A stretch of DNA of 64,000 nucleotides. Source: an uncultured delta proteobacterium. Its GTDB lineage: Bacteria > Myxococcota_A > Polyangia > Fen-1088. The translations under genes were made by a program, and so were the position numbers. Numbering within the stretch: position 1 is the stretch's first letter; each line of letters begins with the position of its first letter. This document shows, in pieces, positions 1 through 21,469 of the stretch. The notes beneath the pieces were generated by a model. The model was not told the origin of the DNA. It made no database searches and saw only the letters and a list, made by a program, of their open reading frames with translations. Location: NCBI GenBank assembly GCA_963767925.1, contig CAVYGB010000008.1:3040001-3104000 (forward strand). Reading direction: 5' to 3'.

Positions 1-1
1 C

Positions 2-85
2 GAGATCACGACCGATCTGACCGGGACCGCCACCACCACCGTGGCCTTCATCGTCGACTCCAAGCCGGCCGTGACGGCCGCCTGA
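2..85 (+). CDS. 3' end of a gene entering from upstream; probable paralog of the two following genes
   Basis: Frame from nt 2 reads EITTDLTGTATTTVAFIVDSKPAVTAA*. Its VAFIVDS matches the C-terminal LAWVVDT and VAWTVDT of the next two ORFs. Confidence 0.65.
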   Translation, partial: EITTDLTGTATTTVAFIVDSKPAVTAA

Positions 86-121
86 CGTCCGCCGCCGTGC
101 CACCGCAGGGGTAGCTAGCTG

Positions 122-1240
122 ATGCCGGCCCGCCTCCGCGTGCGCCGCCCGAGCCCGGAGTGGGCGAGCCCCGACAGCGAGGGGCGCCCTTCGGTCGATC
201 CCGGCCGGAGGGCGCCGCCCGTGCGCGGGGAGCGCACCTTCAACGCGATCTTGCCCGACGGGCGGATCGCCTGGCTGGGGCTGCATCCCGCCCTGGCGTC
301 CGCCGGGGAGACCCGGCACTTCGCCCACGTCGTCAACCGGGGGGCCGAGCGCCGGGCCCGGGCGCTCGGGCGGCAGAGCGCCTCGATCCGGGCGCTGGCC
401 GGCACGCTCGACGCCGACGCGCGCCGGCTGGCCGGCGGCCAGCTCCGCGGTGCCGGCCGACTCCGGCGCCGGCTGGTGGCCGACCATGCCCGGCTGGATC
501 GGCGCCTGTCCGCCGGGTTCTCGGCGCACGACGCGGCCCAGACCCGGATCGATCGGCGGCTGCGGAACTTTGCCCGCCGGCTGGCCCGGCGCGACCTGTG
601 GGACCAGCTCGTGCTACTGAGCGCGCTGCCGCTGTTCGCCGCTTACCGGCAGCCCGGCGATCCCCTGGCCCCCAGCAACCTCGCCCTCACCTTGACCCTC
701 GCGGTCTGGGTGCTGGGGGACGACCTCACCGAGCTGCTCTCGGGCTCGCGCCGGGGGCTCCCCCACTACCTGCGGGGTACCGACGCCTGGTCGTTCGTGG
801 CCCCCTTCGCGAATCTCCTGACCGGCTGGCTGCTGCTGCGCGATCTGCAGCACGACCCCTTCATCACCGGACTGGCCGACCGGTTCCACCTGGCCGCGCC
901 GAGCCTCCCCGACCCGGCCAACCCCGGCGACCAGCTCTACATCTACCGGCAGCAGGTCGACCTGGCGCCCTGGATCGCCGCCGGCTACGTCATCGACTTC
1001 ATCACCTTAGACGGCTTGCCGGCGGTGGCGGGGGTGGCCCAGGCGGGGTTCGCGGCGAGCCTCCCTCCCGGCACGGCGCCCCGGCTGCGGGGGCTGTCCG
1101 CCTCCGTGGCCGGCGGGGTCCTGACCCTCACCGCGATCTTCGGCGCCACGATCGTGGGCCCGCCGCCCTCCGATCTGCGGGAGTCGCCCCGGTCGCTGGT
1201 GCTGGCCTGGGTGGTCGACACGCGGGAGCCCCTCACGTGA
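122..1240 (+). CDS. Hypothetical protein, paralog family member (coiled coil, hydrophobic hairpin, C-terminal beta-rich domain)
   Basis: 372-aa ORF with GC3-rich codons. Collinear motif sharing with 1237-2196. Stop overlaps the next start (GTGA). Confidence 0.8.
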   Translation: MPARLRVRRPSPEWASPDSEGRPSVDPGRRAPPVRGERTFNAILPDGRIAWLGLHPALASAGETRHFAHVVNRGAERRARALGRQSASIRALAGTLDADARRLAGGQLRGAGRLRRRLVADHARLDRRLSAGFSAHDAAQTRIDRRLRNFARRLARRDLWDQLVLLSALPLFAAYRQPGDPLAPSNLALTLTLAVWVLGDDLTELLSGSRRGLPHYLRGTDAWSFVAPFANLLTGWLLLRDLQHDPFITGLADRFHLAAPSLPDPANPGDQLYIYRQQVDLAPWIAAGYVIDFITLDGLPAVAGVAQAGFAASLPPGTAPRLRGLSASVAGGVLTLTAIFGATIVGPPPSDLRESPRSLVLAWVVDTREPLT

Positions 1241-2196
1241 CCCGCCCCGGCGACGACGTCCGGACTGCCGTGGCGGGCGCCCTCTTCGATCGAGCCCGCG
1301 CGCGCCTGGCGGGCGGGATGGGCGGAGCGCCACCGCCCGCGTCCGGATCGACGCCCGCCCCGGGGCCCACCCGCGCGCTTCGCTTCCGCCTGCCCGATGG
1401 GCGGACCGTGCCGGTGCGGGTAACGCCGGCGGTGGCCCGGCACGCCGACGTCGCCGCGCTCGCCCGCGCCCAGGAGGAGCTGACCCGAAAGGTGGCCGAG
1501 CTGCAGGCCAGGAGCGACCTGGCCTTGCTCGGCGTGGCGCACAGCCTGGCGGGCCTGCGCCGCCAGGTGCAGACCACCGCCAGCACCCAGGCGAAGACCC
1601 TGGCCACCCGGGACCGCTCGCTGCGGCTCCAGACCCTCCGCCAGCGCAAGCAGCTCCGGACGCAGGCCGCCGTCCAGGGCCGGGTCGAGCAGATCCGGCG
1701 GCTCAATGCCGCCGCCAGCACGATGCAGAGCGCGGCCTACGGGCAGAAGGGGGAGCTGGTCTCCCGCAACAACCTCCTGCTGGCAGGCAACCAGCTCCTC
1801 TGGAGCTACATCGATCCGATCCTCGAGCGGCTGGGGCTCTGGTCGGGTCCCTGGCCAAGCCCCATCGCCTGGGTGTCGCCGCTGGCGAGCCTGCTGGCCG
1901 GACGCCTCACGGTGGGGCGGTTCCAGCACGTCCGCTTCGTCTCGGGGGTGGCCACCTTCGATGGTACAACCCGCACCCGCCACATCTCCCTGGCCGACCG
2001 CATCGGCGCCGCCGACTTTCCCGGACTGCGGCGGCGGACCGACCTGCCGGTCACCTTGACCCAGCTCGACGGGCCGAAGGCCTCGGTCGACGGCCAGGTA
2101 CGGAACGGGACCCTCGTCATCCAGTTCGCCATCGGCACCTCGATGCCGGTCGGGCGGGTGGCCTGGACGGTCGACACGGGGCTGGGCAATGTCTGA
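1237..2196 (+). CDS. Hypothetical protein, paralog of 122-1240
   Basis: Real portion of listed ORF 160..2196, starting at GTG 1237 in a GTGA overlap. Motifs LPDGR, AAYGQKG, QHVRFVSG, VAWTVDT. Confidence 0.8.
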   Translation: MTRPGDDVRTAVAGALFDRARARLAGGMGGAPPPASGSTPAPGPTRALRFRLPDGRTVPVRVTPAVARHADVAALARAQEELTRKVAELQARSDLALLGVAHSLAGLRRQVQTTASTQAKTLATRDRSLRLQTLRQRKQLRTQAAVQGRVEQIRRLNAAASTMQSAAYGQKGELVSRNNLLLAGNQLLWSYIDPILERLGLWSGPWPSPIAWVSPLASLLAGRLTVGRFQHVRFVSGVATFDGTTRTRHISLADRIGAADFPGLRRRTDLPVTLTQLDGPKASVDGQVRNGTLVIQFAIGTSMPVGRVAWTVDTGLGNV

Positions 2197-2755
2197 GAAC
2201 CTCCTGCGGCGAGCGGCCCGGCTGGTGGGAGGCGTCGTGCTCATGCAGGGGCGGCTGGGGCACCAGGTGCTCGGGCAGCTCCTGGTGGCGCAGGCGACCG
2301 AGCTGGAGATCGCCGGCGCCCAGCTCGCCTTCGCCGCCACCGCCGGCCAGCGCAACGCCGTGGCCCAGGTGGCGATCCGGACCGCGCTGCCCACCCTGGC
2401 CATCCGCGGGCTGCTCCGGAAGGACCAGGCCCGCCTGCTGCGGCTGCGCCGGCTGATGCTGGAGAACCAGATGGCGGCGGCGGCGACCGGCGCGGCGCCA
2501 GCGGCGGCGGTGGGCCGCTCGCCCGGGCAGAAGAGCGGGGTGATGCGCCTGCGCCGCCTGATGCTGCAAGAGCGGGTCGCCGCCGAGGCCCGGGGCCGGA
2601 GCGACCGCCTCGAGCACGAGAACCGGCGGCTGCAGGCCGAGGTCGCCAGCCTGCGGGCGCGCCTGGCTGCGGCGCCGGTCAGCCCCACGCTTGCGCGCGA
2701 GGACGGGGACCCGCCCGGCTGCGGCGGTTCAGGATCACGTCGCGGGCCAGGTTGA
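2189..2755 (+). CDS. Hypothetical helical/coiled-coil protein
   Basis: Start overlaps the upstream stop (ATGTCTGA). Internal repeat RLRRLML x2 and a C-terminal heptad segment (RLEHENRRLQAEVASLRARL). Confidence 0.65.
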   Translation: MSENLLRRAARLVGGVVLMQGRLGHQVLGQLLVAQATELEIAGAQLAFAATAGQRNAVAQVAIRTALPTLAIRGLLRKDQARLLRLRRLMLENQMAAAATGAAPAAAVGRSPGQKSGVMRLRRLMLQERVAAEARGRSDRLEHENRRLQAEVASLRARLAAAPVSPTLAREDGDPPGCGGSGSRRGPG

Positions 2756-3449
2756 TCTCGGCGGACATGCGGTTGCGCCGCTCGAACTCCACCGGGTCGC
2801 CGGCCGCCCGGTCGGGGTGGTACTCCATGCGCCGCTTGCGCCAGGCATCGTTGACCACCTCGTCGGAGGCGTCGGGCCGCACGCCGAGCACCTGACAGGC
2901 CCGCAACACGTCGTCGGCCGAGCGGGCAGCGGCGTCGGCGAAGGGCAGCGGCCGGCCCGCCCGGTGGTCGGCGATGGCGCTGCGAAACACCCCCGCCACC
3001 CGCTGCGCCGCCGCCTCCCCGGCCGCCAGGTAGAAGGCCTGCCCCAGGAAGTCGAGGTTGCGCGAGAGCCCGGACCAGACCGCGCCGAGCAGGGCGCTGC
3101 GGGCGATCACCATGACGTCGCCGCTGCTGGGGAGGCCGGACTGCCAGGCGATCATCTGCCCGCCACAGAACAGCCAGTAGCCCGGGGTCACGCCGAACAG
3201 GCTCGGGGCCCCGCAGGCCCGGAGCTGCTGGTGCAGGTACGGCAGGGCCCGCGCCGCCGACAGCATGAGATCGGTGAGCGCCACCGCCCCGAACAGCACC
3301 GGGGCGCCCTCCTCCTCGCGCAGGTGCTGGCCGAGGGCTCCGTTGAAGGTGTGGGCGGGGTGGACCGAGACGAAGACAACCACCACCTCGGCGCTCCCCA
3401 CGAACTCGAAGAAGCGGCTGGCGTCGACCGCGACCGGCTCGGCGGTCAT
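2679..3449 (-). CDS. J-domain (DnaJ-like) protein with N-terminal thioredoxin-like region lacking CxxC
   Basis: C-terminal VLGVRPDASDEVVNDAWRKRRMEYHPDR...AEINLARD is a J domain with the HPD motif. ATGA overlap with the upstream hydrolase stop. Confidence 0.85.
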   Translation of the reverse strand: MTAEPVAVDASRFFEFVGSAEVVVVFVSVHPAHTFNGALGQHLREEEGAPVLFGAVALTDLMLSAARALPYLHQQLRACGAPSLFGVTPGYWLFCGGQMIAWQSGLPSSGDVMVIARSALLGAVWSGLSRNLDFLGQAFYLAAGEAAAQRVAGVFRSAIADHRAGRPLPFADAAARSADDVLRACQVLGVRPDASDEVVNDAWRKRRMEYHPDRAAGDPVEFERRNRMSAEINLARDVILNRRSRAGPRPRAQAWG

Positions 3450-6400
3450 GCGTTCGACCGGCGGCCGCGCTTCCTGGGAAAGCCGTAGGAGTAGTCGGCC
3501 GGCACCCGGTCCTCGATCCCCTCGAACCAGATGTCCATGAACGTGCCCTCGCGGGCCAGCTTCAGCAGGGGCGGGCCGTTGTCCCGGGCGCCCACGAAGA
3601 CGTCGAAGTGGGCGCCGTAGATCGCCCCGCCGGTGTCGTTGACCTGCAGCCAGCCGTCGTGCCGCTTGCCGTCGGGCAGGGTGAAGCCGTCGAGCTGCCG
3701 GATGTAGACCCGGGTCCCGGTGGGGACCAGGCCGGTCTTCCCGTTGATCACGACGCGGGAGCGGCTCTTGCCGACGGCGCCTCGGTAACGGTCGTCGGAG
3801 CTCTCGAAGGCGCCGATGTCGGCGGCGAGGGTCCGGTAGGGATCGAGGGGGATGCCCCGGAGGATGCCGTAGCCCAGGCCCTCCTTGGCGGTCGGGGTGA
3901 CGGCGTAGGCGCGCACGCTGGTAATGTCGTCGTCCTCGAGGGAGATGCCGGAGACCTTGGTGCGATCCTGGTACTTGTTGCCTGCCGGGTAGCGCCGGCG
4001 GTGGACGGCGAGGACGGGGGCGTAGTCGTGGTCGCCGGGGGCGCGCCAGCCGGCGCCGGAGAGGAGGCGGCCGTCTTTGAGGCGGCCGCTGCCCTGCAGG
4101 GCCATCTCGGCGAAGAAGCCGGCGGGGACCTGGGCGATGACGTCGCCGGTTTTGGAGAGGAGGGGGACCAGCGGATCGGTGGTGGTGGGGGGTTCGATGG
4201 CTACGTGGTAGGCGGTGATGAAGAAGGGGCGGAAGGCGGTGGTGGGGGCGGTGGGGGCGGTGGTGGAGAGGGGGGCCGGGGAGAGGGGGGCGGGGACGGG
4301 GACGGGGATGGGGACGGGGGGGTGAGCAGTCGGGGTGGGGAGACGGGTGGGGGGGCGGATTTCGAAGTGGATGTGGTCGTCGTGGTCGTCCTGGGGTTTG
4401 CAGAGGGACTCGGCGATCAGGGTCTCGTCGTTGAAGTAGATCTTTGCGACGGGGGGTTGGGCGCGGAGGGCTTGCAACATGGCGCGGGCGGCGTTCCGGT
4501 CGTAGGTGGGGGAGGTGGGGGTGATGCCTCCGGCCTGGCCGTCGAGTCTCGGCAGGCGGAGGTCGCAGGCCAGACCGGTCTCGTGGCCGCTGTGTTTGGG
4601 GGTGTCGCCGCCCCGGGGGAGGCTCACGTTGTTGGTGGTGAGCGGGGTGGCGGCGGGGTGGGCGCGGAGGTGGTTGTCGCGGTAGTGGGCGCCGGCTGCC
4701 CGGATCACGTCGGCCAGCCAGCTCGTGCCGTAGTCGTGTTTGTCCCGGGTGTCGGTCAGCTCGAAGTTGTGGAAGCCCTCGGCGGGCGAGCCGGCGGGCA
4801 TCACCTGCCAGCGGGGGGCGTTGCGGGCCTGCAGCCAGTCGAGGGTGGCGCCGGGCACGTCGACCCGGCCGTCGCCGCGAACGCGGTGGCGGCCGGCGGC
4901 GATCGACTGCACCAGGTCGATGGCGTGGAAGATGTCGGCGTCGACGGTCCGGCCCGGCTTGACCCAGTGGTAGCCGAGCGCGATGAGGCGATCCTTCAGT
5001 GCCGCCACGTCGTCAGGGGCGTTCACCCCACCCCGCCCCACGCTGGCGCGGAGGATGAAGGTGGCGTCGGGGGCGAGGGGGACCGGGGGGGCGACCGCCG
5101 GGGGCGCGAGCGCGGCCGGCGCGGGGGCGGGGGCGAGCTGGCGCAGGGCCTCGGGGGTGACGATGGCGTCGGCGCGGCCGCCGTCGACCGCGCGCTGCCA
5201 GCGGACGAAGGCCAGGGTGGTCTCCACGTCCATGAGGGCGGTGGCGGCGCCGGTGTAGTGCCCGGCGCGGCGCAGACCCTCCTGCAGGCGGGTCACCTCG
5301 CCGCCGCTCGAGCCGAAGCGCAGCCGGGTCAGCGCCGCGCCCGGGTTGGCGAGCTGCCCGACCAGGCGCGCCTCCCGCCCGGTGAGCAGGACATAGTGAA
5401 AGGCGCGCCCGTCCTCCCCGGGGGGAGCGGCGGCCGGGGTCAGCCCGGCTGCCTCGCGGAAGTCCCGCCAGGCGCCGGCGTGCACCCCCGTCTGCCGATC
5501 GTATTCGCCGGGGACGGTCTGACAGCCCTGCGACGAGAACCCGTCGCTGCCCACCCGGCGGGCGGGGTGGAGGTTGTCGTGGACCACCCCGGAGTCCCAG
5601 GTGTCGGCCACCGTGTAGACGAGATCGTCGAGCGTCCGCAGCACCACCACGGCGCCCTGCTGGCGGAAGGCGCCCTTGACCTCCCGCGGTTTGCTGCGGG
5701 CGTGGGTGCCTACCCGGTACGGGTAAAAGCCGGTCGGCAGCAGGTTGCAGCGATCGCCGGGCTGGTTGTGCACGAACTTCCGCATCGATCCGGCCGAGGG
5801 AACGGTCGAGCCCTTGAACAGGCGGATCCGGCCGCCCGGCCAATCCCAGACCCCCAGCAGGCAGCGGGCGCCGTCGTGGTCGGGGGTGGTCTCCACCAGG
5901 CGCGCGGCGGTGGTCCAGCCGCTGCCCAGGGCCTCCCCTTCCAGTGTGCAACCGCGCAGCCCGAACAGCAGGCGATCGCCGGCCGCCGCCAGCGGGAACC
6001 GGTTGAGGGCACAGAGTTGCTCGAGGTGGGCCACCCCGAAGGAGAAGGGGAGGTGACTGGCGGGGTGGGCCTGCAGGTGCCGGTGATCGGGGGCCTCGCC
6101 GTCCACTGCCCAGCGAGCCGCGCCGGTGGCGGCCGGCGCGGTGGGCGCGGTCGGACGGGTCGCGGGCGCCGGGGGCCGGGGGGCGCGCGCCGCCGCGGCG
6201 GGGGCGGTGTCCTCCAGGGTGCCGCCGGCGAGGAGCTGCAGGAAGTGCAGCGGGTGGTACCAGATCCAGCCGTCGCGATCGCCGGGGTCGGCCCAGTAGG
6301 CCCGGCCGACGTTGCCCCGGGCCGAGCGGTGGCGGTTGGCCTGGGCCGGGTCCATGGCCTGCAGCGCCTCGCGGGAGGCCAGCGGCTCGAGCCCCTCGAA

Positions 6401-7549
6401 GACGTCCCGGCTGATGATCTCGAGGTGCAGGTGGTGCCCGCTGTGCAGGAAGCCGAGGGGGCCCAGCGCCTCGCCGGCCCGCACCCGGGTCCCCGCGCGC
6501 AGGGGGAGGATGCGGCGGCGCCCGCGCAGCCAGGTCGTCCAGTCGACCTTCTCCGCCTCGGTCCAGCGCAGGAACTCCGAGGCGCTCGGCACCCGTGTCC
6601 GGTCCTCGCTGCCGAGGTCGGTGCACAGGAGATTGTGCAGGTGCACGTAGCGCACGAGGAAGCTGCGCCCGTCGGGCAGCTCGTGGCGCACCACCACGAT
6701 GACCCCGCCGTTGCCGGGCCCCGAATAGGCCGTGTCGAGGCTGGCGCCCACCACCGTCCCGTCGCCGATCGAGCGCACCGCCAGCTTGCCGACCGCTGCC
6801 GCCGGGATCGGGATGTCGACCGCGCCGTGCCAGGCCTGCCGATCGGCCTTCTTGCGGCTGTAGAGCGGGAAGTGGCCGCCGAACTGGGCCCGGTAGACCA
6901 GCCCGAGGAACGATCGGTAGCTGGTGTCGCGATCGCCGTCCAGCGCCGCGACACCGGCCGCCCGGGCCCGCTTGCGCCAGGCCTCGTCGAAGTGGCTGTC
7001 CAGCTCCTGCAGCCGGAAGGGGAAGGTCCAGCCGGTCGGCGCCGGGGCGGGGGTCGGTTGCGGCCGTTGCCCGAGGACGAGCGTGTCTTCCCGGATCAGG
7101 CCCCGGGGACCGTAGAGCATGTGCGGCTCGACGTCCTCGCCGAGCACGCGCACGGTGGCCAGCCGGGCCTCGCCGAGCGCGCGCTGGACCACGAGCTGGC
7201 CCGGGGAGAAGGCCTGCAGCGGCGCCGCCGAGCCCGGCAAGGCGACCGGCTCCCAGACCACCTCCGCCCAGGCCTCGTCGGCTTCGGGGCCGTCGGGCGG
7301 AAGCGCGATCACCTGCGCCCCCCCGTACACCACCCTATCGAACACCCGGCCCAGATCAGGTCCCCCGGACGGAAGCGCGATAGGCGTCGGCATCGGCGTC
7401 CATTGCTCGACGGGCGCTGGCGCTTCACCGAACAGATCGGCGGCGAACCGATCGGCGCGCGCCCGCTCCGCGGGCGATCCCGGCGCGCCCCCCCCGCTCC
7501 CGTTGCCCCGAGCCCCCCGGCGCTGCCCCCGAACATCCCGATCCCACAT
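3446..7549 (-). CDS. Multidomain peptidoglycan hydrolase: M23 peptidase, L,D-transpeptidase-like domain, PG-binding domains, MepA-like endopeptidase, 3D domain
   Basis: M23 motifs HGAVD and HLHLEI; LHP...SSQGC; LRFGSSGGEVTRLQEGL and SVGRGGVNAPDDVAALKDRL (PG-binding); SLPRGG..KHSGHETGLACD and HDDHIHFE; NDTGGAIYGAHFDVFVG. Pro/Thr/Ala linkers separate the domains. Confidence 0.85.
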   Translation of the reverse strand: MWDRDVRGQRRGARGNGSGGGAPGSPAERARADRFAADLFGEAPAPVEQWTPMPTPIALPSGGPDLGRVFDRVVYGGAQVIALPPDGPEADEAWAEVVWEPVALPGSAAPLQAFSPGQLVVQRALGEARLATVRVLGEDVEPHMLYGPRGLIREDTLVLGQRPQPTPAPAPTGWTFPFRLQELDSHFDEAWRKRARAAGVAALDGDRDTSYRSFLGLVYRAQFGGHFPLYSRKKADRQAWHGAVDIPIPAAAVGKLAVRSIGDGTVVGASLDTAYSGPGNGGVIVVVRHELPDGRSFLVRYVHLHNLLCTDLGSEDRTRVPSASEFLRWTEAEKVDWTTWLRGRRRILPLRAGTRVRAGEALGPLGFLHSGHHLHLEIISRDVFEGLEPLASREALQAMDPAQANRHRSARGNVGRAYWADPGDRDGWIWYHPLHFLQLLAGGTLEDTAPAAAARAPRPPAPATRPTAPTAPAATGAARWAVDGEAPDHRHLQAHPASHLPFSFGVAHLEQLCALNRFPLAAAGDRLLFGLRGCTLEGEALGSGWTTAARLVETTPDHDGARCLLGVWDWPGGRIRLFKGSTVPSAGSMRKFVHNQPGDRCNLLPTGFYPYRVGTHARSKPREVKGAFRQQGAVVVLRTLDDLVYTVADTWDSGVVHDNLHPARRVGSDGFSSQGCQTVPGEYDRQTGVHAGAWRDFREAAGLTPAAAPPGEDGRAFHYVLLTGREARLVGQLANPGAALTRLRFGSSGGEVTRLQEGLRRAGHYTGAATALMDVETTLAFVRWQRAVDGGRADAIVTPEALRQLAPAPAPAALAPPAVAPPVPLAPDATFILRASVGRGGVNAPDDVAALKDRLIALGYHWVKPGRTVDADIFHAIDLVQSIAAGRHRVRGDGRVDVPGATLDWLQARNAPRWQVMPAGSPAEGFHNFELTDTRDKHDYGTSWLADVIRAAGAHYRDNHLRAHPAATPLTTNNVSLPRGGDTPKHSGHETGLACDLRLPRLDGQAGGITPTSPTYDRNAARAMLQALRAQPPVAKIYFNDETLIAESLCKPQDDHDDHIHFEIRPPTRLPTPTAHPPVPIPVPVPAPLSPAPLSTTAPTAPTTAFRPFFITAYHVAIEPPTTTDPLVPLLSKTGDVIAQVPAGFFAEMALQGSGRLKDGRLLSGAGWRAPGDHDYAPVLAVHRRRYPAGNKYQDRTKVSGISLEDDDITSVRAYAVTPTAKEGLGYGILRGIPLDPYRTLAADIGAFESSDDRYRGAVGKSRSRVVINGKTGLVPTGTRVYIRQLDGFTLPDGKRHDGWLQVNDTGGAIYGAHFDVFVGARDNGPPLLKLAREGTFMDIWFEGIEDRVPADYSYGFPRKRGRRSNA

Positions 7550-7688
7550 CGCCTCGCTCCTTGCCTCGCGACCTTCGACCGCAGTCCGACCCCGTCATGC
7601 TAACACCGCTCGCAACGCCCGCAGCGGAGGAACGACAAAAGCGCAAGACAAGCGCGCGACAAACGCGCGCCGAGCGCAGTGGCACACC

Positions 7689-7717
7689 GGAAATTTTCCC
7701 TGGCCCTGAAAATTTCC
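7689..7717. promoter_or_regulatory. Perfect 10-bp inverted repeat GGAAATTTTC-N9-GAAAATTTCC, candidate operator in a divergent intergenic region
   Basis: Read directly. It is an AT-rich dyad in very GC-rich DNA between divergent genes. Confidence 0.5.
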
Positions 7718-7757
7718 CCGCGCTGATCGTTGTCGATCACGAAGCGCGAGCTGCCAA

Positions 7758-7840
<83 letters not shown>

Positions 7841-7945
7841 GCGGACAACGAGCCAATCGTCGTTTGAGGGGTTCGTTTCTCGATCGGTCGTGATACATTC
7901 CGACCGGGCTCGTGTTCACGGAGGGATCGAGATGAGGGTACGGGC

Positions 7946-8803
7946 ATGAGGGTCAGGGGGCGGACGCGGACGATCCATTCTCTGGATCGCGATACGCTGG
8001 ACTGGGACACGCTGTTCGAGACCCGCCCGCCCGGGTGGAGCGCGGGGCTCCCCGGGCCGCCCGTGTCGGAATCGGCGTCGGAGTCGTTCGCCACCGCCGC
8101 CACCGCGGCCGTGTCGACCCTGCAACTGCGCAGCAGCGTGGCCACGGTGGCCGAGGGCCAGCACGACCGCTGGCACGCCGGCACGGAGACGCTGCAGGAG
8201 TCCGACACCTGGGGCAAACACATCCTCCGGCACGACTACTGGGCCAGCATCGGCATCACCAACCCCGCCACCCAGCTCGGCACGGCGAGCTGGTGGACGG
8301 TGGCCTGGAGCGCCGTCTTCGTCATGTTCTGTGTGCACCGGGCCCGCACCGGGCTGCAGCTCCCCGGCGCCGTGCTGGGGCACCCCACCCTCACGCGCAA
8401 CTCGGCCCACGCCGCCTATAGCTGGCAGGCCCATCAGGACCGCAGCAGCCGCCGGCGCGGGCGGTACTGGGCCTATCGCCCCGCCGACGCGCTCGTCGAG
8501 GTCGGCGACATCATCGTCAAGGGCCGCGAGGGCGTGACCGCGGCGACGGCCTGGGCGGCAATCACGTCCGCCACCTACAGCGGCTTCACCTCCCACGGCG
8601 ACATCGTGGTCCGGGTGGAGGGGGCCAACGCCCGGGCCATCGGCGGCAACCTCGGCAACTCCGTGACCCGGGCCAGCTACCCGCTCACCGCCGACGGCAT
8701 GGTCGACACGACCTCGACGACCAACGACGCCAACCGGGTGGCCGCCGTCCTCAAGCCCGAAGGTGGAGCCTTCTCGGGGCGACTCACGTCGATGGTCACC
8801 TGA
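7946..8803 (+). CDS. DUF2272-like (CHAP/NlpC-P60-related) putative cell-wall hydrolase
   Basis: AWSAVFV, VGDIIVKGR, SHGDIVV and IGGNLGNSV are typical DUF2272 motifs. No signal peptide. Confidence 0.75.
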   Translation: MRVRGRTRTIHSLDRDTLDWDTLFETRPPGWSAGLPGPPVSESASESFATAATAAVSTLQLRSSVATVAEGQHDRWHAGTETLQESDTWGKHILRHDYWASIGITNPATQLGTASWWTVAWSAVFVMFCVHRARTGLQLPGAVLGHPTLTRNSAHAAYSWQAHQDRSSRRRGRYWAYRPADALVEVGDIIVKGREGVTAATAWAAITSATYSGFTSHGDIVVRVEGANARAIGGNLGNSVTRASYPLTADGMVDTTSTTNDANRVAAVLKPEGGAFSGRLTSMVT

Positions 8804-8944
8804 AGCGCCGGCGGGCCGGTCACCCGGGAGCCGATCGCTCGTTCGAGGGGAGAGCGTTTCCAGCCGTCCGACTGGATTGTGTGGAGGGAGAGCACCATGG
8901 AGCATCGAAGAGCCTGGCCCCGGGGTAGGTCGAACCCGCCGGGG

Positions 8945-11047
8945 ATGTCGGAGACGGATCTGTTCGAGCGGGACCTGTTCGGTCCACCCCCGCCGCGGCG
9001 GGCCCAGGTCGTGCCACCGGCGGTGGCGCCCCGCCTGCCCACCGGCGGGCCGGAGGTCTTCGAGATCCACGCCCCCTACGAGGCGCCCGCGCCCGCCCCG
9101 GCCCCCGCGCCCGCCCCGCCGCCTGCCCCCCCTCCCGCTCCGGGGACCGCCGCCCGCGGCGCCGCCGCGCCGGTGGTCCTCAAGCGCGTGCAGATCCGCC
9201 TGCCCCTCACCAACGAGGAGCTGGAGGTCGCCAAGCTCTACGATCCGCGGGCCGACACCGTCGCCATCCGCGGCACCAACCGCCAGGGCCAGCCGGTCGA
9301 CGTGAGCCGCAAGCTGGCCGACGAGGAGCGAGCCCGCCTGCGCCGCTACCGGCAGATCCACCCCGTGCTTGCGACCGCCATGGGGCGCGCCTCGGCCGGG
9401 CAGCGCTTGCGGGTGGCGATCTGGGTGCACGTACCCGAGGACCTCTTCGACAAGGGCCCCCAGCTCGGCTCGTCGCCGGGACCGGAGGGGCCCCTGGTGG
9501 CCTCCTCCGAGAGCGACGAGACGATCGACCGGGGCGTGCGTCCCGGCGCGCCCACCCGCCCGGCCGAGCCCGGCGGCCCGGCGCGCATGACCGACTACCG
9601 CCGCCAGGTGGAGGTCGCCCTCGAGCGGGCGGCGCGCGAGCTACCCGCCGCCACCGGCGTGCAGGTCACCGGCCGGCTCGGCACCGTCCCTACCCTCCTG
9701 GTCGACGCCACCCCCGTTCAGATCCGCGCGCTGTCGGCCCGCCCCGACGTGGCGGGCCTTTACCTGCACGAGCCGGAGGGGATCGACGACCTCTCCGATT
9801 CCATGCGCATCGCCCGGGCCACCCCCACGGTGGCGGCCGGATGGAAGGGGACCAACATCCGGGTGGGCATCTGGGAGCGCGGCCCCGACGACACGACAAA
9901 CCTGCGCATCGAGGAGTTCTTCGACACCGCCCAGACCCAGAAGTCGTCTCACGCCCGCCTCACGACCGCCATCGTCAAGAACCGGGAGTCGGGCGCCCCC
10001 CAGGGGTACGCCCCCGACGCCAAGATCTTCTCGGCCAACTCCTACGGGCTGGACGCGCTCCACTGGGCGGTGGTGACAAAACAGTGCCGCGTGATCAACC
10101 AGAGCTTCCACGGCCCCAGCGAGGAGGGCTCCGGCGTCCTCTCGCTCGAGGACCTGGTCAAGGACTACCTGGCCACCCACTTCCCCTACCCCACCATCGT
10201 GCACGCCGCCGGCAACCAGTCGCCCGCCACCACCGAGTTCGTCAACCACAAGGGGTTCAACAGCGTGGTGGTCGGCAACCACGACGACACCGCCCGGCAC
10301 ATCCAGCCCAGCTCCGTGTTCCGGAACCCGACCTCGGCCCACAACGACCGGGAGCTGCCCGACCTGTGCGCCAACGGCGACGGCATCAGCGCGGTCGGGG
10401 TCAGCATGAGCGGGACCAGCTTCGCCTCGCCGGCGGTGGCCGGCTCGGTGGCCCTGCTGCAGAACGCGGCCAACGTCCTGCTGAGCTGGCCCGAGGGCTG
10501 CCGGGCCATCCTGCTGGCGGCCGCCGGGCGCAACGTGCGCGGCCGGACCTGGTGGGACGACGTCAACCTCCGCAACGACGGGCGCGATGGGGCCGGCGCC
10601 CTCGACACGCGCGAAGGGGTGCGCATCGCCCGGGACCGGGCCCGTCGCGGCGCCGCCGCCGCCCGGCGCGGCTGGGACGTGGGGACCCTGCGCACGGCCG
10701 ACTTCGACGGCAGCGGCAAGAGCACCTTCCGCCACCAGATCGCCGTGCCGGCCGGGACCGCCCCCTGTCCGGTACGGGTGGCGCTGGCCTGGAACAGCAA
10801 GGTCACCTACACCACCGACAGCACCCAGACGCCGCCGGTGACCAACGTCCGCTCCGAGCTGACCGTCGACCTCGACCTGCAGGTCTACAAGGCCGGCGCC
10901 CTGGTCGCCTGGAGCAGCAGCTTCGACAACAGCTACGAGGTCGTCGACTTCCAGGGCGAGCGGGGCGCCACCTACGACATCGTGATCCGCCGCTGGTCCG
11001 GCACCGACTGGGTCTGGTACGGCGTGGCCTGGACGGTCTTCGACTGA
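8945..11047 (+). CDS. S8 subtilisin-like serine protease with prodomain and C-terminal beta-sandwich
   Basis: VGIWERG (Asp position), SSHARLTT (His), HAAGN (oxyanion), SGTSFASP (Ser). Start chosen at ATG 8945; 8879 and 8897 are alternatives. Confidence 0.85.
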   Translation: MSETDLFERDLFGPPPPRRAQVVPPAVAPRLPTGGPEVFEIHAPYEAPAPAPAPAPAPPPAPPPAPGTAARGAAAPVVLKRVQIRLPLTNEELEVAKLYDPRADTVAIRGTNRQGQPVDVSRKLADEERARLRRYRQIHPVLATAMGRASAGQRLRVAIWVHVPEDLFDKGPQLGSSPGPEGPLVASSESDETIDRGVRPGAPTRPAEPGGPARMTDYRRQVEVALERAARELPAATGVQVTGRLGTVPTLLVDATPVQIRALSARPDVAGLYLHEPEGIDDLSDSMRIARATPTVAAGWKGTNIRVGIWERGPDDTTNLRIEEFFDTAQTQKSSHARLTTAIVKNRESGAPQGYAPDAKIFSANSYGLDALHWAVVTKQCRVINQSFHGPSEEGSGVLSLEDLVKDYLATHFPYPTIVHAAGNQSPATTEFVNHKGFNSVVVGNHDDTARHIQPSSVFRNPTSAHNDRELPDLCANGDGISAVGVSMSGTSFASPAVAGSVALLQNAANVLLSWPEGCRAILLAAAGRNVRGRTWWDDVNLRNDGRDGAGALDTREGVRIARDRARRGAAAARRGWDVGTLRTADFDGSGKSTFRHQIAVPAGTAPCPVRVALAWNSKVTYTTDSTQTPPVTNVRSELTVDLDLQVYKAGALVAWSSSFDNSYEVVDFQGERGATYDIVIRRWSGTDWVWYGVAWTVFD

Positions 11048-11085
11048 GGGCAGCGGGGCCAGGGCGCGGGCGGGGAGGTCGGAAG

Positions 11086-12396
11086 ATGGTCTCGAAGAGA
11101 GCGTGGTTGCAGGCGGAGCTGTTCTACGCCGATCTGATGGGGCTGCCGGCCCCCTTGCTTCCGGGCAGCGCCCGGCCGCTGCGGCGGCTGCCGGCCTTGC
11201 CGTACGAGCAGAACCCGCCCGCCCCCGCGGTCCTCCCGCCGCCCACCCCCATCCACCCGGTCCCCCGGGGCCTCAACCTGGTCCCCCACGCCCACCTGCG
11301 CCAGACCTGCGCCGACGGGCAGGCCTTCCGGGCCGACGCCGCCGCCACCCCGATGTCGTCGGCCACCATGAACCCGGGCTTCCTGAAGGCCGACGACCTG
11401 ATCGAGTTCGACACCCGCCTCGACGGCAAGCTGATCGACCTCATCGTGGGCAACGCCGACTACCGGACCATGGTGAGCGCCGAGAGCGTCCGGCGCCGCT
11501 GGCCCAGCCAGGGGGACAAGCTGCGGGTGGCCCTCGTCGACCTCACGGGTAGCAAGCTGTGCCGGCCCGGCTACGCCGGCTGGGGCTCGACCTGGCCGAT
11601 GCCTGGCGGCAGCACCGCCAAGATCGCGATGGTCTACGCCGCCCACCAGCTCCTCTTCGATCTCGACGAGCTGGCCCGGGTGGGCGGCCTGCGCACGGCC
11701 GCCGACCTGAAGACCGCCGCCCGCGCCGCCTGGTCGGGGCTGACCTGCCCGCCCGACCTCGACTGGCTCGTCCAGCTCGACGCCAGCAGCGCTCCGGTGC
11801 GGGCCACCGCCAGCGCCAACCTGCAGCGGCACCTGCGGGAGATGGTGGACGCCTCCTTCTCCGGCGTCAGCACCTCGCGGGCCAGCGAGCTGATCATGCG
11901 GATCGGGTTCGAATACCTCGCCTCGGTGCTGTGGCAGTCGGGCCTGCGCCACCCCACCCGCAACGGGCTGTGGGTGGGTAACACCTTCATGAACGTGTCG
12001 ATCACCGCGCGCGCCCAGGCGGCCTGCCACAGCGGCAACAACCCCATCACCTGGAGCAAGAACCCGCTGGGGGCCACCGGCATCACCCTCACCGGCCTGT
12101 CGGCGGCGACCTATTTCACGCTCCTGGCCCAGCGCCGGCTGGTCAACGACGCGGGCTCGCGCCAGATCGAGACCCTGCTCGCCAGTGGCTGCCGCTTCAT
12201 CTCCCTCTCCGGCGCCACAATCCGGGCCAGCAAATGTGGCCTCACCTCCTCGGTGCGCCACGACGCCGCCCTGATCGAGAACGGCACCCGCCGCTACGTG
12301 GTCGTCGTCCTGACCAAAGACGCCACCTGGTCCACCGCCGTGCGCGCCCGCTTCCTCGACGACCTCGACACCCTCATCCGCAACAACAACCCTTGA
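11086..12396 (+). CDS. Serine hydrolase, class A beta-lactamase/PBP-like fold
   Basis: GGAGG RBS at 11074. VALVDLT..., GSTAK (SxxK), SKCG at the KTG position, RHDAALIE...RRYVVVVLT. Confidence 0.75.
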   Translation: MVSKRAWLQAELFYADLMGLPAPLLPGSARPLRRLPALPYEQNPPAPAVLPPPTPIHPVPRGLNLVPHAHLRQTCADGQAFRADAAATPMSSATMNPGFLKADDLIEFDTRLDGKLIDLIVGNADYRTMVSAESVRRRWPSQGDKLRVALVDLTGSKLCRPGYAGWGSTWPMPGGSTAKIAMVYAAHQLLFDLDELARVGGLRTAADLKTAARAAWSGLTCPPDLDWLVQLDASSAPVRATASANLQRHLREMVDASFSGVSTSRASELIMRIGFEYLASVLWQSGLRHPTRNGLWVGNTFMNVSITARAQAACHSGNNPITWSKNPLGATGITLTGLSAATYFTLLAQRRLVNDAGSRQIETLLASGCRFISLSGATIRASKCGLTSSVRHDAALIENGTRRYVVVVLTKDATWSTAVRARFLDDLDTLIRNNNP

Positions 12397-12467
12397 ACGC
12401 CCGGCAGACGGCGATCGGGAGCCTGCCGGGGCCTCAGCAACGACCCGGACCGTGATACCCTCCCCGG

Positions 12468-13916
<1,449 letters not shown>

Positions 13917-16911: not shown

Positions 16912-17530
16912 CTATCCAGAGCGCTTGCCGCTGAGCTGGACCTCGTCGATGAGGCCGTAGTCTGTCGCCTCGGCGGCCGACATGAAGTTGTCGCGTTCGG
17001 TGTCGCGGGCGATCTTCTCGGCGGTCTGGCCGGTGTGCCTGGCGTAGAGGGCGTTGATGGTGGTCCGCGCCGCGAGGATCTCGCGGGCCTGGATCGCGAT
17101 GTCGGTGGCGCTCCCCTGGAAGCCGGCCAGGGGCTGGTGGATCATCACGCGCGCGTGGGGAAGCGCCTTCCGCTTGCCCTTGGTGCCGGCGGCGAGCAGG
17201 AAGCTCGCCATCGAGGCGGCCTGGCCCAGGCAGAAGGTCGCCACCGGGCAGCGCAGGGCCATGCATGGTGTCGTAGATCGCCAGACCGGCGGTGACCTCG
17301 CCGCCTGGAGAGTTGATGTAGATGATGACGTCCTTGTCCGGATCCTCCGACTCGAGGAACAGGAGCTGGGCGACGACGACGTTGGCCAGCAGGTCGTCGA
17401 TCTCGGTGCCCAGGAAGATGATGCGGTCCTTGAGCAGGCGCGAGAACAGGTCCCAGCCCCGCTCGCCCCGGTGGGTCTGCTCGACGACGGTCGGAATTAA
17501 TCCCTGCATCGCTCTCGAATAGTCGGTCAT
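16912..17530 (-). CDS. clpP: ATP-dependent Clp protease proteolytic subunit, one apparent +1 frameshift near 17260
   Basis: [22 protein letters not shown], then in another frame [19 protein letters not shown]. Removing one G restores DTMHALRC. Confidence 0.9.
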
Positions 17531-18690: not shown

Positions 18691-19479
18691 TCAGCGAAAG
18701 GCGTAGCCGGTCGAGAGCAGGAGCCGGAGCAACGACGGCGCGCCGGCGACCGTCGCTTCCGCCCGGGCCCCGACCGTCCACCTGGCGATCGTGGCGTCCG
18801 CGCCGAGCCCCAGGATGGCCCGCGCGCGGCCGGCGGAGAGGACCGGCACCGCCCCCGTCGCGGCGGCCAGCCAGCGCAGCGGACCGACCCGCTGGAGCGT
18901 GCCGCTGAGCCCCGCGGTGACCTCGGAGGGGTTCATCGGGTTCACGACCGGGCCCGCCGCCGGTCCATGGTGACCGGCGTGACCATCCAGCGCGGCGAGC
19001 GCGCGGCCGTAACCAACCTCGGCGGCCAGGGCGAGGTGGCTCCAGCCCACGCTGGTCCAGATCCCCGCCATCAACATCGCGTGCCCCATCCCGAGCTGCC
19101 GTCCGGCATCGCCGAGCGGGGCCGACCCCATGAGGGCGAATCCGCCCGCCGGCCCGGCACCCGCGCGCCCGAAGACCGGGACCGCCACCGCCAGGCTCGG
19201 GTCGCCGGGCCCGAACCAGGTGGCCCCCTCCGACTGCAGCCGGTACACGGGGAACCGCACGGCGGCGGAGAACGCCCTCGACCCGCCCGAGAGGCGCAGC
19301 CCCATCCCCTGGAAGTTTCCCGCCCCGTGCTCGTCGCGGAAGGTGGCCACCTCCGGCTCGAAGGCCACCGTCACCGCCGGGCCGGCGGCTTCGTCCTGCA
19401 CCGCGGGAGCGTGTGAATGCGCGCGGGCGACGCCGCCCGCGCCCAGCAGCAAGAGCAACGCGATGGAGAGAGGCACCAT
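18691..19479 (-). CDS. Putative outer-membrane beta-barrel protein with His/Met-containing loops
   Basis: Signal peptide MVPLSIALLLLLGAGGVARA, alternating beta-strand pattern, C-terminal STGYAFR, segments HSH, GMGH, HAGHHG. Confidence 0.6.
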   Translation of the reverse strand: MVPLSIALLLLLGAGGVARAHSHAPAVQDEAAGPAVTVAFEPEVATFRDEHGAGNFQGMGLRLSGGSRAFSAAVRFPVYRLQSEGATWFGPGDPSLAVAVPVFGRAGAGPAGGFALMGSAPLGDAGRQLGMGHAMLMAGIWTSVGWSHLALAAEVGYGRALAALDGHAGHHGPAAGPVVNPMNPSEVTAGLSGTLQRVGPLRWLAAATGAVPVLSAGRARAILGLGADATIARWTVGARAEATVAGAPSLLRLLLSTGYAFR

Positions 19480-19549
19480 GTCCGGCAAGATGCCCCGGTC
19501 GCGGCCGGCTGCGAATGCGGTTTGTTGTCGCAGCTCCCCGGCGACGGGT

Positions 19550-21310
19550 CTACGGGAGCTGCCGGGGGTCGGTCGGCTCGGCGGCGCCCAGCGGGCGCAG
19601 CAGCGGGCTCCGCGGTCGACCCTGCAGCGCGAGGGGCGGCTCACCGGCAAATTGCAGCCAGGCCCAGGTGGGCTCGGGCTCGGGCAGGTCGACCACGAAG
19701 CCGGCCCCGTGCTCGAGGACCGCCCGGTAGACGACGATCGAGCGGATGACAGCTCCCGCCCGGTCGAGCACCTGGGCCACCTCGGCGTCGCCGACCGGCT
19801 GTTGCCCGGGGCGCACCAGGTGACCGAGCGAGAGCCGGCCGTCGGCCGACACAACCGCCGACCGGTGCGGCGAGGTGAGGACCACCTCGCCGATCAGCCG
19901 GGCCCCACCCAGCCGCCCGATCTCGGTCCGGCGCTTGGCCAGCTCGCCGTAGGTGTGGTCGCTGATCCAGGTGGGGTTGCAGTAGCCCATCAGATCCTTG
20001 CGGCTGCTCGGCACCAGGCCGCCGTTGCGCACGTCGAAGCCGGGCACCCCGATGCTGCCGTCGGAATAGGGGAAGGCGCGGTCGACGTCCTCGGGCGTGA
20101 TCTCCCCGCAGGGCGAGGGCGAGTGGCTGCGCCCGTGCTGGTGGCCCAGCTCGTGGGCCAGGGTCTCGGCCGAGATGGCGCCGGTGTAGCCGACGCCGAT
20201 GCTGACCTGCTGGGCGGCGTTCGCCCGCAGCGGTCGGAACGACAGCCCCGCGACGCAGGCTCCGTCGCAATAGGTGCGGAAGCTGCCGGCGGGCGAGATG
20301 AGACCGTAGTAATGCCAGTCCGTGCCCCGCCCCTCTTCCTGGCGCAGGTTGCGCACGCCGTTGATCAGCTCCGGCCAGCCGTCACCGTCGGGCCCCACCT
20401 CCAGCTCGCCGGCCAGCACCGGCTCTCCGACCTCCACCTTGACCTCGCGGGTCGGATACTGGGCCTGCAGCAGCGCCTGGAAGGCCACGATCTGTTGCTC
20501 CGACACGTCGGGGGAGCGATCCGAGCCGTCGGCCTGGTACAGGATCGGCACGAACTTGACCTGCAAGGTCCCGGTGTCGATGGCCCCGAGCGCGATCGGG
20601 CCCGCCGCCGGCACCCGGGTCCGGCCGCCGCCGGGGCAGGTGACGCCGAGGTCGAGCTCGATCTGGGCTGTCGTGTCGGTCCGGACGTGCACACCCGGCA
20701 CCGTGAAGTTCAGGGTCGTCGCCGGTTCCTCCACCTGCGAGTCCCGGGTCAGGTTGAGGCCCGCCGAAACGGTGTGGACGCCCGCCGACGAGGTCAGCGT
20801 GAGCCGGCCGGCCAGGTTGCCCGTCCGCGCGGTCCCCGTGTAACGCAGCAGCGCCTGGAACACGGTCGGGCGACCCACGATGATCGGCGCGTTCCGGTTC
20901 GCCACCACCTGGCCGTCCTGCAGCAGCCGGACCTGCACCGCCTGGTACAGCCCCAGCCCATGGATCTGCAAGTTGCAGGCATGCGGCTCCGGCACCGGCC
21001 CGGCGGCGATCGGCCCCGGCGTCATCGAATTCGGCGGCGCCGGCGGGCTGGGCGCGGGCGCCGGGGCGGGCACCGGAACCGGCGCCGGCATCGGCGGCGT
21101 CGCCATCGGCGGCGCGACCACCGGCGGGGGCGTCACCGCCGGGGGCGGCGGTGCCGAGCCGCCGGGCGAGCCGGCAAACTGGGCGGAAAACTGCCCCGTG
21201 CAGCCCGCTGCGGCGACCGCCAGCACGGGGAGCGCGACGAGGGCCGCCTGGAGGAAGCCCGGACCGCGCCGGGCGAGGGAATTGCCGCGAAGATAGGCCT
21301 TGACGCACAT
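19550..21310 (-). CDS. Metzincin-type (M66-like) metalloprotease lipoprotein
   Basis: Lipobox AAAGC, Pro-rich linker, HELGHQHGRSH zinc motif, Met-turn DLMGYC. Confidence 0.8.
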   Translation of the reverse strand: MCVKAYLRGNSLARRGPGFLQAALVALPVLAVAAAGCTGQFSAQFAGSPGGSAPPPPAVTPPPVVAPPMATPPMPAPVPVPAPAPAPSPPAPPNSMTPGPIAAGPVPEPHACNLQIHGLGLYQAVQVRLLQDGQVVANRNAPIIVGRPTVFQALLRYTGTARTGNLAGRLTLTSSAGVHTVSAGLNLTRDSQVEEPATTLNFTVPGVHVRTDTTAQIELDLGVTCPGGGRTRVPAAGPIALGAIDTGTLQVKFVPILYQADGSDRSPDVSEQQIVAFQALLQAQYPTREVKVEVGEPVLAGELEVGPDGDGWPELINGVRNLRQEEGRGTDWHYYGLISPAGSFRTYCDGACVAGLSFRPLRANAAQQVSIGVGYTGAISAETLAHELGHQHGRSHSPSPCGEITPEDVDRAFPYSDGSIGVPGFDVRNGGLVPSSRKDLMGYCNPTWISDHTYGELAKRRTEIGRLGGARLIGEVVLTSPHRSAVVSADGRLSLGHLVRPGQQPVGDAEVAQVLDRAGAVIRSIVVYRAVLEHGAGFVVDLPEPEPTWAWLQFAGEPPLALQGRPRSPLLRPLGAAEPTDPRQLP

Positions 21311-21469
21311 TGGACACCCATCGGGCCGGGGGGAGCTGCGACCCGTGCCAGGGACGATACCCCAAACCCGCGCCCCGGTGTCTCCTCGGATCGCCGCGCA
21401 CCGCTCCCCGAGGGCCAGACGGAGGATCGCACCCTCAAGGGCGCGCCGGGCTGTCCCGATGTGAGGCCC

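Follow-up and report, generated by a model that had tools for sequence, protein, structure and literature searches.

In the genome of an uncultured delta proteobacterium (G000; assembly GCA_963767925.1, 9.3 Mb, 84 % complete) we found a cluster of about 31 kb in which a gene for the TcA subunit of toxin complex (Tc) toxins stands beside a module of six genes, three of them paralogs (parA, parB and parC, together Par), a J-domain gene and genes of wall-degrading enzymes that lack export signals and share a short N-terminal tag. The cluster lies at G000:C8:3023042-3053916, and the whole stretch of DNA analysed here (the window, 64,000 nucleotides, G000:C8:3040001-3104000) holds its right half at positions 1-13,916. 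We propose that the cluster encodes a capsule-less variant of the Tc toxins, in which the tagged enzymes would be clients of the TcA/Par machinery, helped by a co-chaperone, the product of the J-domain gene (Trx-J). Our confidence in this proposal is evenly balanced.

TcA forms the Tc channel, and Tc toxins are known as toxins of insect and mammalian cells; the enzyme that they carry is small and enclosed by the TcB-TcC capsule. The protein of 3397 amino acids encoded upstream of the window is, judged by its sequence, a clear member of the TcA family, the syringe or channel subunit. It carries the Pfam domains TcA_TcB_BD (5e-99), ABC_toxin_N (8e-49), Neuraminidase-like (3.3e-29) and PA14 (accessions PF18276 at 5e-99, PF20220 and PF18413), and its residues 2443-3244 align to the C-terminal regions of the solved TcA-type chains YenA2, TcdA1, TcdA4 and XptA2 (E 1e-84 to 1e-64). 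It is the sole TcA of G000 and has an N-terminal extension of about 1700 residues with PA14. At the other end the protein extends beyond the Pfam TcB-binding domain by about 160 residues (residues ~3235-3397, L001 16066-16630), and this tail can be aligned in the Par-linked orthologs up to residue 3396.

If the channel subunit is present, then we can ask: Where is its capsule? No TcB gene was detected by Pfam on the genes called within -45 to +40 kb, and no RHS family was found among the locus proteins. Genome-wide, the 84 % complete G000 has no full-length SpvB, only partial matches (at most 45 bits, profile 2-92); full-length SpvB was likewise not found in G021 (90 % complete), a relative of a different genus, nor in G061. 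Absence of the capsule from G000 and G021 is not proven, as both genomes are incomplete. Partial SpvB and TcdB mid-N matches occur in three G000 proteins of about 2200 amino acids (G000:C10:437529-444203, C1 ~456,400 and C10 ~1,431,100), which have lipoprotein-like N-termini, differing C-terminal tips and no tblastn counterpart in related loci. Their sequences suggest exported polymorphic toxins of the RHS type and not Tc capsules, and the RHS proteins of G000 gave no hit in G021 or in L020-L072.

TcA genes were detected in five of 61 genomes (G000, G021, G024, G034 and G040), and Par in two of these five. The Par-linked TcAs are 60-72 % identical to one another over their C-terminal ~1000 residues, across both phyla, whereas their identity to the TcAs of G034, which belongs to the same family and has no Par, is 31-37 %. 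There the TcA genes adjoin RHS genes and a TcB-TcC fusion of 2640 amino acids (SpvB 4.5e-113, midN, midC, FG-GAP and a deaminase tip). This canonical Tc locus is at L076 2033-9955 (G034:C2), and the fusion ends in a Pput_2613-like deaminase domain. Both kinds of locus are held by G063 and G064, with full-length SpvB beside other TcA genes on contigs C88, C191 and C777 and the Par-linked TcA on C95 and C14. The Par-linked TcA is a separate, horizontally shared clade in soil Myxococcota and Acidobacteriota, and in it the six-gene module has taken the place of the capsule genes.

This module consists of u450, u167, ParA, ParB, ParC and coil188 and lies directly 3' of TcA. An initial annotation of the window, made from its letters alone, had described a coupled run of paralogous genes in a locus continuing upstream. 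The paralogy is borne out by alignment (ParA and ParB are 31 % identical, E 5e-27; ParA-ParC, E 3e-11; ParB-ParC, E 1e-6; a single alignment spans all three groups), the genes overlap as described, and TcA, u450, u167 and parA were indeed found upstream; the paralogs, however, number three, and the first of them starts upstream of the window. The Par family appears small and tight in sequence searches. ParA has 57 homologs in a set of 5.8 billion proteins, none with a functional name from its source, the few named ones being 'hypothetical protein', and a Par profile run against 1.84 billion representatives retrieved 357 proteins at E <=1e-3, with 239 at <=1e-30. Pfam, NCBIfam and PHROGs gave nothing over cut-off for Par, u450, u167 or coil188.

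The AlphaFold2 (AF2) model of ParA, with a mean predicted local distance difference test value (pLDDT) of 69, comprises a disordered acidic head rich in Ser, Asp and Glu (residues 1-91), a long helical hairpin, a three-helix bundle and a C-terminal beta domain. In this model the hairpin would bear a beta-hairpin at the conserved LPNGR, the bundle would cover FAAYG, NNL and QHERF, and the beta domain would end in VAWxVDT. The acidic Ser/Asp/Glu tail of u450 and the acidic head of ParA are encoded by 24-nt and 18-36-nt repeats (L003 2035-2131 and 2824-2965), and a FEYDE motif in the ParA head is almost invariant across 24 homologs. ParA, u450 and u167 are acidic, with isoelectric points (pI) of 4.5-5.3, and ParB, ParC and coil188 are very basic (pI 11.3-11.8). 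This split into acidic and basic proteins, the gene order, which is fixed, and the overlap of stop and start codons lead us to suggest that the module proteins form a hetero-oligomer.

The paralogs had at first been taken for a delivery or pore apparatus. For a pore there is no support: no 19-residue hydropathy window reaches 1.6 in ParA, ParC, u167, u450 or coil188, so that ParA and ParC are without a transmembrane-grade segment, and the only membrane-grade hydropathy peak of ParB falls in its beta domain. The obvious delivery device of the cluster is TcA, and the paralogs have no detectable kinship to parts of pores, capsids, phage tails, extracellular contractile injection systems (eCIS) or type VI secretion systems (T6SS). 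Nor were genes of these kinds found upstream, where a TcA-type gene was met instead; no sheath, tube, baseplate or capsid Pfam family occurs among the genes called from about -31 kb to +36 kb. Relatedness of Par to TcA or to the TcB-TcC fusion was considered and rejected, profile-profile probability being under 1 %. The ParA model had no Foldseek match at E <=1e-3, and a wide VIA search returned only generic helical matches (Z <=9). As leads only, we mention that the ParA beta domain resembles C-terminal domains of phage tailspikes and tail fibres (7eea: Z 6.9, rmsd 2.5 over 70 residues, 20 % identity) and that the Atlas neighbours of the model of a ParA homolog are mostly viral clusters.

The distribution of the module was traced in 53 fetched loci, six from species genomes and 47 from metagenomes, of which 19 are at least 10 kb long. 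The six species-genome loci are titled Acidobacteriota, Vicinamibacterales, Polyangiaceae, Nannocystaceae (twice) and 'Deltaproteobacteria'. Among 60 relatives, only G021 has the Par family. It keeps the order TcA-u450-ParA-ParB-ParC-coil188 and the convergent Trx-J at 41-59 % identity, together with homologs of the subtilase S8_588 and of the large peptidoglycan hydrolase PGH1367. All six module genes are present in 12 of the 19 long loci; in the other seven the module is cut by the contig end, is available as a fragment only (L024), or lacks one gene at 1e-5. Trx-J was detected in 13 and TcA in eight, while a ninth locus (L020) has TcA 1 kb past its fetched end. Wherever a complete Par module is accompanied by enough sequence, TcA lies within about 15 kb (G000, G021, G061, L021, L022, L023, L025, L027/L028, L057 and L065). 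S8_588 recurs in related loci, and the expected neighbourhood of paralogs and hydrolases is found in other genomes too, with at least one tagged open reading frame (ORF) in 13 of the 19 long loci.

The tag was first noticed by side-by-side reading of N-termini. Its consensus is ER[RQ]xADLF[FY]ADL[MTLF]G, often with GF.xxS before it and an Arg-rich stretch after it. A stricter first expression missed PGH1367 and was replaced by F[FYAEW][ARD][DAT]L[FMLT]G, which has five hits in all six frames of G000, three of them at the N-termini of PGH1367, of the subtilase S8_716 and of a protein like penicillin-binding proteins (PBP-like). In the related loci (0.89 M residues) the same expression gave 21 hits, 16 of them distinct; most of these tags lie 24-66 residues below an upstream stop, and four stand further down frames that are still open. 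The expression had been shaped partly on G000, and therefore a profile was built from the 16 foreign instances only. Among 59,366 G000 ORFs of at least 80 amino acids, this profile placed the PBP-like protein first (E 5e-5) and PGH1367 second (E 4.7e-4), the next ORF having E 0.46. An alignment of the tagged N-terminus, searched against 61 relatives, gave strong hits in its own members G000 and G021 alone and three weak ones (21-24 bits) in G007, G024 and G043, so this search is not independent support.

In the related loci, 32 distinct ORFs out of 3,022 scored at least 11 bits with the foreign-only profile; 16 of them were outside the training set, and a single locus holds up to five. Pfam assigned Phage_lysozyme2 to four tagged foreign ORFs (one also with Peptidase_M23), DUF2272 to six, Peptidase_M15_4 to one and to another below cut-off, PG_binding_1 with Peptidase_M74 to one, an Rv2525c-like glycoside-hydrolase-like domain to one (below cut-off) and Trypsin to one. 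DUF7800 was assigned to a tagged ORF of L030 that is cut by the contig end; its full-length look-alike in L031 combines DUF7800 with a PhoD-like phosphatase. The rest have no family. As far as these domain assignments go, the tag is attached to many unrelated catalytic domains, which for the most part would cut peptidoglycan. Tagged proteins are about 220 to 1367 amino acids long. Since the tag is shared across genomes and is found in G000 only in this locus, the view that the enzymes are not chance neighbours of the module is supported.

Four enzymes of the cluster are encoded in the window. PGH1367 has Pfam matches to 3D (7.8e-7) and PG_binding_1 (4.6e-5) and a weak NCBIfam match to MepM/M23 at residues 237-309, which gives the order tag, N-domain, M23-like, unknown domain, PG_binding_1, LAS-like and 3D; HxxxD/HxH and LAS-type motifs were found by eye. 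Its residues 462-1078 are 57 % identical in G021, and its N-terminal 190 residues have only two foreign matches to longer proteins. The second enzyme contains DUF2272 (PF10030, 45.9 bits against a 27-bit cut-off), a family placed in the papain-like NlpC/P60-CHAP amidase group and compared with Tse1 in PMC10318531. The subtilase S8_716, like S8_588 upstream, carries a predicted S8 catalytic domain (PF00082, 5.5e-14 and 7e-31, respectively); inspected by eye, the position of the subtilase-triad Asp in S8_588 (GICDWG) is taken by Glu in S8_716 (GIWERG). The PBP-like protein matches Beta-lactamase2 (PF13354) at 20.9 bits, under the 22-bit cut-off, and shows STAK, SGN and KCG motifs by eye. Searches of PDB sequences with PGH1367, the DUF2272 protein and the PBP-like protein gave nothing meaningful.

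None of the four seems to have a route out of the cell through Sec, Tat or the lipoprotein pathway, as had been observed initially. The best 10-residue hydropathy in the first 70 residues is 0.71-1.38, against 2.1-2.7 in three lipoprotein controls of the same genome, and this crude test found no twin-arginine or lipobox pattern in the N-termini. Corrected start codons do not supply a signal peptide either, for none of the four has an in-frame start further upstream that would make it longer.

The J-domain gene is coupled to PGH1367, as had been noted, but both genes lie on the minus strand. In Trx-J a thioredoxin-fold domain that lacks CxxC comes first, and a helical linker joins it to the J domain at the C-terminus (PF00226, 33.2 bits; cut-off 27.8). 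The HPD motif (H211-P212-D213) is invariant in all ten orthologs, and their alignment has no conserved CxxC and a single invariant Cys, C79. The AF2 model (pLDDT 79) has the thioredoxin fold in its N-domain; the Foldseek matches listed are mostly thioredoxin-fold proteins, with E from 5e-3 (best) to 3e-2, HyaE (2hfd) being at rank 4 and ERp29 at rank 12. Because HPD is invariant, the fold is that of thioredoxin and no CxxC is conserved, we read Trx-J from the model as a J domain that recruits Hsp70, fused to a thioredoxin-fold domain without redox activity. One complex prediction of Trx-J with a tagged N-terminus had a score of 0.00; it gives no verdict and is evidence neither way.

According to our proposal of a capsule-less Tc variant, the tag would serve as an address that marks the enzymes for recognition within the producing cell. 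Trx-J may read it and hand the enzymes to Hsp70, and the tag would couple them to the TcA/Par assembly, which would then leave the cell and bring a cell-wall-degrading cocktail to other bacteria. A narrower version is that the TcA channel is fed directly with the large tagged hydrolases, Hsp70 keeping them unfolded through Trx-J and the module serving as docking or adaptor element in place of TcB-TcC. We consider this version unlikely; if it were true, TcA would be the channel of a hitherto new pathway of protein export or injection, directed at the walls of bacteria and not at animal cells. In known Tc toxins, as described in PMC6868009, the cargo must be unfolded, has a pI of at least 8 and a mass of 20-35 kDa, and travels only inside the TcB-TcC capsule. 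Among the 16 tagged proteins found first, 13 have a pI of at least 8.9.

A number of observations weigh against our proposal. The other three of these 16 proteins are acidic or neutral, and payloads of about 220 to 1367 amino acids are far above known Tc cargo and have no capsule. This TcA has kept its TcB-binding domain well (338 bits), and TcB genes elsewhere in G063 and G064 make a borrowed capsule possible. Ten of the 19 long loci did not show TcA; in these the contig end or the 10-kb flank is limiting. Two of the window enzymes have degenerate tags: the foreign-only profile gave S8_716 just 5.5 bits and did not find the DUF2272 protein. A propeptide or a site of cleavage is another possible nature of the tag. 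Contact-dependent antibacterial systems usually carry immunity genes, and no immunity-like small genes lie beside the hydrolases in G000. No holin- or spanin-like release gene was recognised, although no search was aimed at spanins and ORFs under 70 amino acids were outside the scan. Finally, the initial annotation had called the enzymes the cargo of the paralogs; the shared, locus-restricted tag and the recurrence beside the paralogs speak for more than chance neighbourhood, but loading by TcA/Par, that is the physical link, is what we infer.

The same genes could also form a co-regulated lytic island. TcA, Par and the hydrolases would be co-expressed, for example under the sigma-54 activator encoded at the right end of the cluster, and released by general lysis, with the tag as propeptide, inhibitory segment or maturation site, cut for example by S8_588. 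We regard this as a minor possibility, though one to be kept in mind. The cocktail co-released with the Tc toxin of Yersinia entomophaga is, according to PMC10847048, nearly all without export signals and leaves by lysis of a cell subpopulation; here S8_588 recurs in the loci, and the tag stands near the N-terminus, where propeptides sit. However, the tag is conserved on at least eight unrelated catalytic domains in two phyla and confined to these loci, which suggests a dedicated reader, and the conserved J-domain co-chaperone and the six-gene module would need some other role. Sigma-54 control is not supported by a crude promoter scan either: TGGCAC-N5-TTGCA, with at least 9 of 11 matches, was hit upstream of u450 in two of 24 loci and in none of the intergenic regions of G000.

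Distinctly unlikely, in our estimate, is release by self-lysis of the type 10 kind, in which signal-less hydrolases would cut the producer's own wall to free the TcA complex, while the tag and Par would control access to the periplasm. Such a route is known from the Tc toxins of Yersinia entomophaga, whose release by a holin/endolysin/spanin cassette is described in PMC10847048, and the enzymes of our cluster are wall hydrolases without export signal, as type 10 hydrolases are. In the module, however, the lack of transmembrane-grade segments in five of the six proteins leaves no holin or spanin candidate recognised, and up to five tagged enzymes per locus, with proteases and a PhoD-like phosphatase, exceed the needs of a lysis cassette. 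That only the paralogs and TcA form one system, beside unrelated housekeeping or wall-remodelling hydrolases, is very improbable: S8_716 and the PBP-like gene do lack homologs in the fetched loci at 1e-5, bar weak cross-matches of S8_716 to S8_588 orthologs, but the tag is common to the enzymes of related loci and otherwise not found in G000, and different genomes hold different tagged hydrolases in the same neighbourhood.

How does the proposed capsule-less system compare with known ones? It resembles the Tc toxins of Photorhabdus, Xenorhabdus and Yersinia, made of TcA and TcB-TcC, in its TcA homolog, whose C-terminal part aligns to solved chains, and in its signal-less components. It differs from them in having no TcB or TcC beside TcA, in the PA14-bearing extension of about 1700 residues, in the six-gene module of unknown family and in its hosts, soil Myxococcota and Acidobacteriota; its candidate payload would be separate tagged enzymes and not a TcC tip. 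Chitinases are part of the Yen-Tc complex of Yersinia entomophaga. The enzymes here cut peptidoglycan instead of chitin and share an N-terminal tag, and no holin/endolysin/spanin cassette was recognised near them; the likeness to Yen-Tc is that barrier-degrading enzymes, nearly all signal-less, are released with a TcA-based complex, and that such complexes and co-released enzymes leave by lysis of a subpopulation, as PMC10847048 describes.

Payload signals of eCIS (PVC/Afp, with the Pvc15 ATPase) are alike in that an N-terminal signal on unrelated payloads is read in the cytoplasm with an ATP-driven chaperone-type factor (PMC11495950). In contrast to eCIS, our cluster has no sheath, tube or baseplate genes, its helper is a J-domain protein, which implies Hsp70, and not an AAA ATPase, and its tag is a sharp motif of 14 residues. 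The peptidoglycan-hydrolase effectors of T6SS (Tse1/Tae amidases) belong to the same enzyme classes and serve as antibacterial payloads (PMC10318531), but here there are no T6SS genes and, in G000, no adjacent immunity-like genes. Trx-J can be compared, in its N-domain fold and the lack of a conserved CxxC, with the redox-inactive thioredoxin-fold chaperones HyaE, which binds an N-terminal signal peptide, and ERp29/Wind. It differs from them in being fused to a J domain, and the Foldseek matches have modest E-values (5e-3 to 3e-2).

The six-gene module and the tag are undescribed; the TcA is a clear family member, whereas members of the TcB and TcC families are missing from the cluster. Searches of the literature on Tc toxins in Myxococcota and Acidobacteriota, on predation and on antibacterial hydrolases, subscription journals excepted, turned up no account of a system of this kind. 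Should the tag prove to be a loading signal, no earlier Tc-type machine would have been directed at bacteria or have had separately encoded, exchangeable payloads, and the system would bear on how bacterial predators and competitors deliver lytic enzymes that lack signals. The tag also offers a simple handle for searching payload repertoires in metagenomes.

Features of the cluster are collected in Table 1. Genes were called by frame-specific G+C content at the third codon position (GC3) and the order GC1 > GC2, in DNA of 71-76 % G+C; owing to this high content, open frames are abundant on both strands. The ad hoc caller under-calls genes in loci of 60-65 % G+C, where synteny rests on tblastn.

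Table 1. Genes and tag of the cluster. Positions are those of the window unless they begin with C8, the contig of G000.
Feature	Position	Strand	Remarks
u350 and second subtilase S8_588	upstream of TcA	-	Peptidase_S8 7e-31 for S8_588
TcA-type gene	C8:3026437-3036630	+	3397 aa; upstream of window
u450	C8:3036905-3038215	+	Pro/Gln-rich head, acidic Ser/Asp/Glu tail
u167	C8:3038236-3038739	+	directly before ParA
parA 3' end	1..85	+	GC3 gene call; full gene G000:C8:3038736-3040085, 449 aa
parB, second paralog	122..1240	+	372 aa, pI 11.3
parC, third paralog	1237..2196	+	319 aa, pI 11.8; 4-nt overlap with parB
coil188	2189..2755	+	188 aa, basic; 8-nt overlap with parC; closes six-gene module
Trx-J (J-domain gene)	2679..3449	-	4-nt overlap with PGH1367; DnaJ Pfam 5.8e-8
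PGH1367, multi-domain peptidoglycan hydrolase	3446..7549	-	1367 aa; Pfam and NCBIfam
PGH1367 N-terminal tag	7427..7468	-	residues 28-41, ERARADRFAADLFG; profile E 4.7e-4
DUF2272 protein	7946..8803	+	Pfam 7.6e-12; N-terminus tag-like, degenerate
S8_716 subtilase	8879/8897..11047	+	Peptidase_S8 5.5e-14; weak tag residues 18-29, nt 8948-8983
Beta-lactamase/PBP-like	11086..12396	+	Beta-lactamase2 20.9 bits; tag residues 4-19, nt 11095-11142
NtrC-type sigma-54 enhancer-binding response regulator	12468..13916	+	Sigma54_activat 6.8e-71, Response_reg 3e-29

The gene of the sigma-54 activator is the probable right border of the cluster, because the next genes (a catalase and a ClpP piece) are unrelated; its homolog was found in eight of the 53 fetched loci, there upstream of u450. 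The ClpP piece is an ORF of 116 amino acids (window 16912-17262, minus strand) that matches only positions 73-178 of the ClpP profile and may be a truncated gene or a wrong start call. A protein of 1976 amino acids with calcium-binding EGF repeats is encoded further on (window 19130-25060, plus strand). On the other side, upstream of S8_588, three plus-strand genes encode a dynamin-like GTPase (748-aa ORF), an unknown protein of 328 amino acids and a patatin-like phospholipase (L002 19020 to L001 3079); these three have no homologs in the related loci and are probably a separate unit.

Repeats occur in two intergenic regions of the cluster. Directly after the TcA stop, before u450, there is (ACGGTG)x11.7 (L003 636-705 = G000:C8:3036636-3036705). 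The divergent region between PGH1367 and the DUF2272 gene contains (AGCACG)x7 and a 31-nt tandem repeat (window 7757-7853) and, around 7690-7730, a near-palindrome seen by eye, GGAAATTTTCCC...GAAAATTTCC.

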